This document shows positions 3,501-6,500 of a DNA stretch of 64,000 nucleotides, piece after piece. The notes under the pieces are model-generated. The model searched no databases. It saw only the letters and a list, made by a program, of their open reading frames with translations, and was not told the origin of the DNA. Positions within the stretch are counted from its first letter, which is position 1. Every line of letters begins with the position of its first letter. This DNA comes from Perna viridis (taxonomy: Eukaryota), in NCBI GenBank assembly GCA_037379345.1, contig CM074511.1, positions 58,472,862 to 58,536,861 of the forward strand, written 5' to 3'. Both the position numbers and the translations under genes were made by a program.

Positions 3501-6500
3501 TGTGGTGTGTAAATGAGTGTGATATAGGGCATGACATATAGGTCTAGGGGTGTGATATAGGGTATGCGATATAGGTCTAAAGGTGTGATATTGGGTTTGC
3601 GATACAGGGTTTGAACAAACACTTATAATGCATACACAAAAAGTTAAATTTTAATCTATATATACATGATATAGTTTAATTACGACCGCCAACTTGGTAA
3701 CTTATGCTAAAATTCACATATCATATTTGTACATATAATGAGAATGGATATCATATGGTGAATTTTTCAAAGAGACAACAACCCCATCGGTATGAAAAAT
3801 GTCTGCTCAACTATATTTTAGATAATAGGGTAATAAACAACAGACATTCAGCTTCGTTTAACGAACGGATTGGTTAACTTCGTTAATCATCGGTTTATGC
3901 TGGTGGCTCTTTGTAATTGTTAAAATTTCAGGACGAAAACATACAATAGAATGTGCATCACGGCAATCGTTAACAGAATTATAGAAAACTCATGTATTCC
4001 CGCGAAAAATATTGAAAAGGTTTACATGTACCTCACCTTTAAATGATTCGTTGTCATCTAACATATCATCGACAAATGGCGTCCCTGTTAGACGAAATGG
4101 TACCGCGACTAAGCCTTCTTCCTGTTCTTTCCCTTCATTAGTATCCGTTAGTTGATAAATATCAATCGATCCTATATTCATTGCGGAGGAATCAGACATT
4201 GTTACTTGAAATTGTTGGCAGTTTTCACGTTTAGGATGAAACTCCAGTCGTGTTTTTGGAAAACCTGTTACATTCTGAACATTTCCGCTTAATTTTAACA
4301 TGTACTTCGTTCCTGGAACACTCTCAAACTCTCCGGAATGACTCGGCTTTTGGTCGAGGTAGTTTTTATTTATCCAGTAATTCATACGATCATCTAATTT
4401 TCTTTTTGTGGTACATTCTATTAGAACTACAAAAATGTTTTCTGCAACTGGTTTGACCAGGACCAAGAAAACAACAAAGTACTGCCTCATTGATGCCCTC
4501 CGACATAACTGTGATGTCTCTCTTATCACGGATGTCCTTGATTTGTTTCTCTTAGCTTCACTTGCTACATATCTGTTGGAAAACAAACACGGTCATCTTT
4601 TAGAACAAGTGTAGTAAGCAAGAACTTTTAATTCGTCAAAAATATATGCATTGAGACTTACATGCAAAAAAGTCACTTAATTTCTTCTTAATTTAATGTT
4701 CGTTCACATACGTTTTTTTAGAGTCATTATTGGGTCTTTAATGTCACTTAAGACACTTTTATTAAAATAATTTTTTTTTCTAAAATAAATAGCTTACATA
4801 GAGAAATGATCTACTGGAATATTAACGCATCCCAATTTTGACACCTTTGGGTTCTTGTCGATGATTTCCCAGTGGTCTAAATCTTCCTTTTCCCCGAAGT
4901 CTGGGTCCAAGAAGTAGTCGGAGTCCACATCGGAACCCAGAAGATATATATCCCCGTCATTTTCATAGTCATGAGGTAGTGGGACTTTGAGATTTACGGT
5001 CTTTTGAGGGCTTTCTGATCGATCGTGTGTAAGGTCGTAAAAATGACCCACAGATAAAATAGCGTCTAAGTTTTCTGGCTTGTAAATTGGAGAAGGAATA
5101 ACCTAAATAAGATAGAAATACATAATCTATTCAGGTATCTGTCGCCTTAATTTGTTTGTTAGTGTTCATTGTTCATAAAATCCAATCCCATTAATCACTT
5201 AATCTATGATGTGAAATTTCATGATGCAAACTCTATGTGCTCTATTTTTAGGTGTTTAAGTCTAATTAAGGTTCCACTTATTCATATACTTCTAATTCAC
5301 AAGGTTTTCGTTGCTGACAAAAGAAATTAGATGATATGATGAAATAAGCGCACATCATCAAAATATATCTAAAGTCGGTATTTCATTCTTTAGCTAATTA
5401 CCAACTGTTACTTTTGGTTTACAGGTTAATTAGATAATTCTGAATCTTACTAATACTTCGTCAATTTATACGTCAATGAAAATTTTCAACTACGTTAATT
5501 TATACGTCAATGAAAATTTTCAACTTTGTCTATCGGTGGTGAAATAATTTAATTTTTTTTCTTGTAACCATATATAACACTGTGACAGTATACTAGTATA
5601 TCAGAGATAAAAATAGCCAGGTGTTTACGTGTTTTCGGTGTAGTGAAAAGAAAGTAGACACACCAATGTAAGTAGACTTAATTTCTATGTAAGACGAATA
5701 TTTTAAATATTTATCTACATGTAAATGTACTATGATTATAGGCTATGCATATAATGGACGGAGCTCAATGTGTGCCCCCAAACTACCTTTAAACTGTAGA
5801 CATTATATTTTTGGTTGCCTTTCCGACTGTCACTATTATAGTTTTCAAATTGTTGCTGTGAATTGACAGTTTAAACATGCTTTTTATTCAAATATATCCT
5901 GGTTATTTATAAAAACAGTCATGAACAGTGTTGTGAATCCATCTATAAACCTGTGTTGTGGAAGACCTCTTAAATCATGTTACTATATAGACGAAGTCTC
6001 ATTCGGTAAGGAGAGCGTGTGAGACTTTCTTCTGGGAAAGCTCAATACATTTCTATCCAAATTTAGGGTTAATTAATAAATATAAAAACGTATTCTTCGG
6101 CGTATTAAAAGACAAAATAGCGCTTCCCCACTTTGGCAATCGTTTATTTCTGTATCGACAAATTTCGTCAATTCCGTCAGATTCATAGTTTGGTCTTACA
6201 CTTTACATATATAGAACGTCGTTAACGCTCCGTTCATAATAATCTATTATTAACTAGTCAATCACCCTTACACGAAAATGTTATAAGTTTCAAGGTAAAC
6301 ATTTTGTATGTGTGGAAGTTGATATGCGGGCTGTATGTAAGGTTAGTAAGATCATAAGATAGCCTTGTAGCTATTCATTTTCAATAGACAGAAGCATTTT
6401 CCCGATCGTTGTTAAATAGTAATGCATCTACTACCTGTGATTTGTCCCCAATAATTGGCAGTATAGCCATGAATTGAGTTTCCTTTGCAAGTATCTTTAT

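Follow-up and report, generated by a model that had tools for sequence, protein, structure and literature searches.

The locus described here raises the question of whether a mollusc protein with the tripeptide His-Phe-Ser at the end of its second ZU5 domain cuts itself at this site, and what would then become of the two pieces. It was read on the minus strand of a 64,000-nucleotide stretch of Perna viridis DNA (contig CM074511.1), which is called the window below. The window encodes a spliced protein with the domain order ankyrin repeats-ZU5-ZU5-UPA-death domain (ANK-ZU5-ZU5-UPA-DD), likely with a second death domain behind the first (Table 1). The gene model comprises 14 exons between 10274 and 507, bounded throughout by AG/GT, which join in frame to a reading of 859 residues.

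The motif is encoded by CAT (4808-4806), TTC (4805-4803) and TCT (4802-4800), followed by AT at 4799-4798, and over the adjoining intron the joined reading is V-N-I-P-V-D-H-F-S-I-Y-V. Contigs were compared from four of the 24 listed runs, where the run type "RNA?" is a guess of the tool and no run is recorded as RNA. Position 4798 is joined to 4572 in contigs of runs X4 and X8, from two studies (4798-5100 and 4036-4572 are consecutive), the intron is retained in a colinear contig of X15 (3617-8770), and the flanking exons sit on separate contigs in X1. The placing of the HFS codons beside a splice junction, which a sequence-only reading of the window had proposed, is therefore confirmed, with the splice itself backed by the X4 and X8 contigs. 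At the other end of the model, the stop at 509-507 was rejected as the true end of the gene, given a donor at 519, a longer contig and longer homologues. The gene probably extends past this donor, because contig X1-1 runs 381 letters further and the Mytilus homologues have 1240-1288 residues.

Table 1. Features of the gene, in window positions; residue numbers refer to the 859-residue reading.
Feature	Position	Strand	Residues	Exons	Basis
Ankyrin repeats, four to five	7866..10274	-	1 to about 160	1-5	Pfam Ank and homologue alignment
Exons 1-5	10274-10161, 9675-9574, 9322-9224, 8541-8443, 7957-7866	-			
ZU5-1	6898..7872	-	about 167-315	end of 5, 6 (7630-7276), start of 7 (6981-6775)	
Degenerate counterpart of the motif where ZU5-1 ends, lacking a nucleophile	6922..6930	-	H305-V306-R307		profile alignment and structural offset
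ZU5-2	4557..6897	-	about 316-463	7, 8 (5102-4798), first codons of 9	
HFS motif, predicted to undergo autoproteolysis in cis at the F/S bond	4800..4808	-	H455-F456-S457		sequence, conservation, model, GAIN register
Intron, phase 2, GT..AG, two bases after the Ser codon	4573..4797	-			
UPA	4080..4484	-	about 488-622	9 (4572-4037)	
Death domain 1	2026..2597	-	about 638-725	2599-2451, 2142-2015	
Linker exon before the second death-like domain	1455-1367	-			
Second, divergent death-like domain	540..959	-	about 766-849	979-813, 644 onward	

Some further features of the window were observed. On the minus strand, 9983-10196 holds the 3' end of coding exon 1 in five tandem copies of 45 bp, every copy with an AAG/GTAGG donor of its own, and among the contig pieces listed for X1 and X8 there are pieces that end at 10161, i.e. 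at the first of the five donors. An uninterrupted BTB-BACK-Kelch frame of 585 residues at 18876-20630 (minus strand) represents a KLHL-type gene. On the plus strand, open frames of 577, 540, 1531 and 1075 residues lie within 22328-40009, of which three are ankyrin-rich and the last is without a clear Pfam family; possibly they make up one giant ankyrin-repeat gene with large exons.

The domains were assigned by Pfam, by profile comparison and by an AlphaFold2 model of a close homologue, Mytilus trossulus P0002 (residues 167-621, alignment of 10 rows, 74.7% identical to the window protein there; pLDDT 87.5, pTM 0.84). Pfam Ank matched four exons at E-values of 4e-6 to 1e-3. Model residues 7-148 and 151-297 each align with the ankyrin-R ZU5 (Z 10.2 and 11.1, respectively). 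The profile alignment of ZU5-1 to ZU5-2 was partial and out of register, and it is given no weight here. UPA_2 was matched at E 0.005, under the Pfam cut-off, and the UPA has fold matches to the UPA-bearing chains of NLRP1, CARD8 and ankyrin. The best fold match of the whole model is the ankyrin-B ZU5-ZU5-UPA-DD structure 4d8o (Z 20.7, rmsd 8.3, 403 residues aligned), and the further top folds are other ankyrins, the FIIND of NLRP1 and CARD8, and UNC5b. A profile of the middle region had a single PDB match, the ankyrin-G ZU5-ZU5-UPA structure 6m3p (E 1.8e-4), with H-F-S opposite V-S-A, and with a broader profile this register recurred on ankyrins 1, 2 and 3. The ZU5-ZU5-UPA assignment of the sequence-only reading is thus upheld by the ankyrin-G match, the model and the fold matches. 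Pfam ZU5 and Peptidase_S68 had no match in the motif exon or in ten of ten family members, a blank that is uninformative because Pfam misses S68 in hemichordate PIDD1-like proteins too.

The DD-DD tail of that reading stood in part. The first death domain is clear, with Pfam Death matches in nine of the 12 homologues (E 1.6e-8 and 2.8e-8 in those from Mytilus), and in the window itself Pfam picks up pieces of a death domain. A second one is likely present, although the signals are weak: an iterated profile of the first domain reached it in relatives at E 9e-5 (P0017) and 0.013 (P0004), with a database size of 200, and in the window model no earlier than round 3. A further lead, and no more than that, comes from Death clusters assigned to it by ESM Atlas at 0.88. 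A direct hhalign comparison of the two domains scored 14.8, less than the highest of 30 column shuffles (17.1). The protein probably extends past this domain.

H-F-S occurs once in the 859-residue model, where composition predicts 0.06 occurrences (0.56 for the looser H[FLM][SCT]). Since bare HFS is common, with 25 instances in the six frames of the window, the weight of the motif rests on its position and conservation. As to position, the motif (model residues 288-290) lies in the turn between strands 281-286 and 291-297, i.e. before the last strand of ZU5-2, in the AlphaFold2 model of the homologue. Four GAIN entries are among the fold matches listed (Z 7.4-8.1), and their register, taken from the first and last aligned residues on the assumption that the last 7-11 residues are gap-free, is consistent in all four: S290 falls on residue 912 of ADGRB2 (8oek) and residue 531 of CD97 (9mqr, 8ikj), and H288 on residue 855 of ADGRB3 (4dlo). 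S912 and S531 are described as the GPS nucleophiles and R855 as occupying the His position (PMC13062082, PMC12519206). The model position and this register place the motif at the canonical cleavage turn, as had been supposed, to the extent that the homologue model can be relied on.

The counterpart in ZU5-1 is H305-V306-R307, a placement that follows from profile alignment with two-site relatives and from the model, where ankyrin-R residue 1068 is the end point of each ZU5 half, at an offset of 149. THVRSF, which the sequence-only reading had named as the counterpart, does belong to ZU5-1, but the exact equivalent of H-F-S within it is H-V-R. With this site degenerate and no other HFS in the model, the claim of an intact motif at the end of ZU5-2 only was borne out.

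Conservation was followed in 12 named homologues of 29-75% identity, from two Mytilus, four scallops, Tegillarca, two unionids, Haliotis and two Patella. All 12 retain site 2 as H-(F/L)-(S/C), in agreement with the conservation expected of a cleavage motif: His in 12, Phe in 11 (Leu in Tegillarca), and Ser in nine with Cys in the three gastropods. With the window protein counted, His is present in 13 of 13 rows, Phe in 12 and Ser or Cys in 13. This should not be read too strongly, as H455 is one among 44 invariant columns out of 456, and two of the 14 His in the region are invariant. Ser, Cys or Thr can act as the nucleophile in cleavage of the PIDD1/Nup98 type (PMC9162469), and the Ser/Cys exchange at site 2 fits such a role, with the reservation that column 208 also alternates between Cys and Ser. 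Site 1, on the other hand, is never complete in the close homologues: the mussels (the window protein and both Mytilus) have His and Arg, the four scallops and Tegillarca (5 of 13 rows) have Ser or Thr at the nucleophile position without the His, and the rest have neither. P0010 (Haliotis) carries an insertion of about 500 low-complexity residues that separates the H-F-C strand from UPA, and P0013 looks similar.

A search of representatives found 203 proteins at E <= 0.001, of which 150 were listed. Motifs were counted in the listed relatives of at least 40 bits, including the seed rows and the model and dropping P0036, a misaligned intron read-through; these counts are not phylogenetically independent. 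Among the matches listed, 57 of 93 have a complete H[FLM][SCT] at site 2 and 36 do not; at site 1 it is complete in 4 of 85, three of these four being named Branchiostoma. Out of the 68 listed relatives that span both sites, 37 have the motif at site 2 only, two at both, one at site 1 only and 28 at neither. By descending score tier, site 2 is complete in 18/18 (at least 400 bits), 10/21, 17/23 and 12/31 of the listed matches, and site 1 is complete in none of the 18 in the top tier. The loss of site 1 read from the window is therefore borne out among the listed relatives. When the seed rows are set aside, 43 of 45 listed matches with His at -2 have Ser or Thr at the nucleophile position, and 20 of 34 without this His have Ser, Cys or Thr there; the Fisher value for this pairing, 1e-4, overstates the association as the rows are related. 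Ankyrin repeats were found in 26 of the 30 top long matches scanned.

A quick tree of ZU5-2 and UPA (64 rows, SH-aLRT support, midpoint root, with human PIDD1, DTHD1 and UNC5CL outside its sampling) places the window protein as sister to Mytilus (99), then with scallops (99), within a group of 48 rows (95). Twenty-five of the 47 others in this group are named, and all are molluscs, including four further Mytilus proteins. The other 16 rows include amphioxus and hemichordate proteins, several of them annotated as PIDD1-like, and one ankyrin-like protein.

Several relatives showed variations of their own. Six of the nine short ZU5-2 fragments printed (P0069, P0070, P0073, P0075, P0085 and P0151) stop one residue past the triad, and because they end like the window exon read into its intron, the family as a whole may share the intron adjoining the motif. 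The paralogue group P0020, P0021, P0022, P0024 and P0034 has S-F-S or T-F-S of NLRP1/CARD8 type at site 2, beside members with a dead site. Two giant members, P0014 (Haliotis asinina, 4604 residues) and P0018 (Patella caerulea, 4289 residues), place many ankyrin repeats ahead of ZU5-ZU5-UPA, with HFS at site 2 in one and QFI in the other. In P0107 (Branchiostoma) and P0145 (Ptychodera), a ZU5-UPA with HFS or HFT is fused to a "GT4-conflict" glycosyltransferase and no death domain is present, which suggests that the same cut would release an enzyme. Five hemichordate proteins (P0115, P0139 and P0178 of Ptychodera, P0136 and P0148 of Saccoglossus) are PIDD1-like and LRR-bearing, four of them with two death domains; their site 1 looks incomplete and their site 2 is SFS, PFS or HFS, so that loss of site 1 looks to recur outside molluscs.

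By analogy with the systems in which this chemistry is known, we consider it likely that the window protein cuts itself once, between F456 and S457. For PIDD1 and Nup98, cleavage is described as an attack by the HFS Ser on the bond before it, which leads through an N-O acyl shift to hydrolysis and depends on the upstream fold (PMC9162469, PMC3210808). With these two, NLRP1/CARD8 and GAIN as guides, we infer that His455 would activate Ser457, which would attack the Phe456 carbonyl in an N-O acyl shift (N-S in the Cys-bearing gastropods). Hydrolysis would then yield an ANK-ZU5-ZU5 N-piece of 51.7 kDa (~52 kDa) and a UPA-DD-(DD) C-piece of at least 46 kDa starting with S-I-Y-V, ZU5-1 acting as a structural spacer. 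The first strand of the C-piece would complete the ZU5-2 sandwich, so that the cut would arm the protein rather than free it. Since the last ZU5-2 strand is where the C-piece starts, the pieces would be expected to stay bound, as is reported for NLRP1 and CARD8, whose fragments remain non-covalently associated up to the degradation of the N-terminal one (PMC7794386, PMC3210808). The weakest step would be the last, in which degradation or unfolding of the ankyrin half sets UPA-DD free to oligomerise and to bring in death-domain adaptors for signalling in immunity or cell death, much like the functional degradation of NLRP1/CARD8. To the reading as a whole, i.e. a single cut with the pieces clipped together until a trigger releases them, we assign a probability of roughly 0.6.

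The sequence-only reading had gone further, in that one cut would directly release a UPA-DD-DD fragment like PIDD-CC, without a PIDD-C-like intermediate. Taken to mean a constitutive product formed at once, it can point to the single intact site, to PIDD1-CC being an active, stable fragment that activates caspase-2 (bioRxiv 10.1101/2025.06.23.660994), and to reports from bivalves of PIDD and RAIDD homologues together with several genes of caspase-2 type (PMC7836458, PMC8917759). As worded, however, it was not borne out. In the model the cut sits ahead of a strand of the ZU5-2 sandwich, and by analogy both the continued association of the CARD8 and NLRP1 fragments and the poor processing of PIDD1 with site 1 disabled speak against it: human PIDD1 S446A is about 85% unprocessed, direct formation of PIDD1-CC being inefficient (bioRxiv 10.1101/2025.06.23.660994). 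Moreover, the N-terminus consists of ankyrin repeats, not LRRs, and the family stands apart from the deuterostome PIDD1-like proteins in the tree. We regard immediate release as improbable. A different departure would be that some lineages cut both ZU5 domains, with the Ser or Thr that scallops and Tegillarca have at site 1 served by a distant His, as CARD8 does at SF/S (PMC3210808), so that cutting at site 2 only would be true for mussels but not for the family. The Arg of the window protein and both Mytilus homologues at this position, the variability of the column (R, T, S, N, D) and the lack of any other conserved His in ZU5-1 make this very hard to credit.

The PIDD1 result also bears on whether any cut takes place, since a tandem ZU5 with site 2 only is not guaranteed to cut well when the second cut of PIDD1 is inefficient without the first. 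Nor is H-X-S/T sufficient for cleavage, because ADGRB2 carries H-L-S and yet resists it (PMC13062082). Together with the loss of the motif in many paralogues and a domain order as in the ankyrins, which are also the best sequence and fold matches, these observations could mean that the motif is kept for fold or binding, that cleavage is absent or negligible, and that the whole protein is a short ankyrin-like adaptor. Against this, ankyrins fold the same turn with V-S-A, so that HFS is not required for the fold; Cys is the sole substitute for Ser in the 12 closest homologues; and His and nucleophile are retained together, the His being invariant here as opposed to 31.6% conserved in ADGRB2 (PMC13062082). 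An uncut adaptor is accordingly an unlikely reading in our view, and a single cut with the pieces held together until release remains the one preferred.

The chemistry proposed is already known, and the domain combination is undescribed within the literature searched. No description of the mollusc family was found in that search; the supplements of PMC8195603 and PMC3482391, Liao et al. 2014 and Heinz et al. 2012 might list such proteins. Autoproteolysis has been predicted for invertebrate ZU5 proteins in general, with an expansion in sponges noted (PMC8195603, PMC3482391). The mollusc family is large and unannotated, and Pfam reads its members only as "ankyrin repeat" or "death domain" proteins. 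If the cut takes place, arm-and-release signalling by ZU5-UPA would extend to a mollusc family with several paralogues per genome, and farmed bivalves would gain candidate intracellular immune sensors. The coexistence of an ankyrin domain order with a PIDD-type cut site bears on whether ankyrins have lost autoproteolysis, a natural tandem ZU5 with a dead site 1 is useful for asking why the second cut of PIDD1 needs the first, and the natural Ser, Cys and dead variants offer a cheap test of cleavage. A more speculative picture, which we put forward as tentative, is that molluscs carry an expanded family of ankyrin-tipped, self-cleaving "tripwire" sensors. In these, a cytosolic ANK-ZU5-ZU5 half would act as bait for pathogen enzymes or damage signals while clipped to a UPA-DD-DD half, which would build a platform of death domains after destruction of the bait half. 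This would make them an invertebrate counterpart, on an ankyrin plan, of the functional degradation of NLRP1/CARD8, and a natural case of a tandem ZU5 cutting at site 2 without site 1.

Among known systems, the protein belongs with the autoproteolytic ZU5-UPA death-fold proteins (PIDD1, UNC5CL, NLRP1 and CARD8), cleavage itself being predicted from sequence and model. Its ZU5 fold leads into UPA and then into a death-fold domain, as seen through the model of a 75% identical homologue, and in the same model the H/S-F-S/C/T motif, conserved in the orthologues, occupies the turn before the last ZU5 strand. PIDD1 is described as LRR-ZU5-ZU5-UPA-DD with HF/S at S446 and S588 (PMC9162469). The tandem ZU5-ZU5-UPA-DD core is shared, and so is an HFS just ahead of UPA, where the second ZU5 ends and where PIDD1 is cut to form PIDD1-CC; a residue-level correspondence with S588 is putative, traced indirectly through amphioxus and hemichordate PIDD1-like proteins, since the human PIDD1 matches in PDB cover the death domain only. 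Unlike PIDD1, the window protein has ankyrin repeats in place of LRRs (no LRR family was matched by Pfam in any of the 12 homologues), has lost site 1 to H-V-R instead of carrying one HFS per ZU5, and continues after its first death domain into the second, death-like one and probably an additional tail.

The ankyrins (-R, -B and -G) share the order ANK-ZU5-ZU5-UPA-DD and give the best PDB matches in both sequence and fold. Canonical ankyrins have 24 ankyrin repeats. The window protein has four to five, is 16% identical and carries HFS in place of the non-cleaving V-S-A. The ZU5-1 of its family is too divergent for Pfam ZU5, whereas the ankyrin-like P0149 scores E 4e-36, so that neither the long repeat array nor a non-cleaving ZU5-ZU5-UPA above the Pfam cut-off was found. 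The UNC5 receptors and UNC5CL, which is reported to autoproteolyse (PMC10084454, PMC7883297), share the ZU5-UPA-DD supramodule (3g5b, Z 10.1), but have one ZU5 and a transmembrane helix, of which there is none in the modelled part here. The GAIN/GPS of adhesion GPCRs has the turn of the superfamily, with our motif in register with the GPS H-X-S/T, and its fragments are bound through the last strand; the window protein differs in being apparently cytosolic, with no 7TM or tethered agonist, and the likeness is limited to the ZU5-like sandwich.

Lastly, NLRP1 and CARD8 (7crv, 7crw, 7jn7 and 6x6a, Z 9.9-12.7) have a single cleavage position before the last ZU5 strand and a C-fragment made of UPA and a death fold. 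The window orthologue group differs from them in carrying HFS rather than SFS, two ZU5 domains, and a death domain rather than a CARD, and in being without NACHT-LRR; Pfam matched neither CARD nor FIIND in the 12 homologues. The N-terminus of NLRP1 that is bound by DPP9 is Ser-Pro, while Pro follows the Ser in none of the 58 motif-bearing rows among the matches listed here. For how the cut would be used, NLRP1 and CARD8 nevertheless appear, by analogy, to be the best model.
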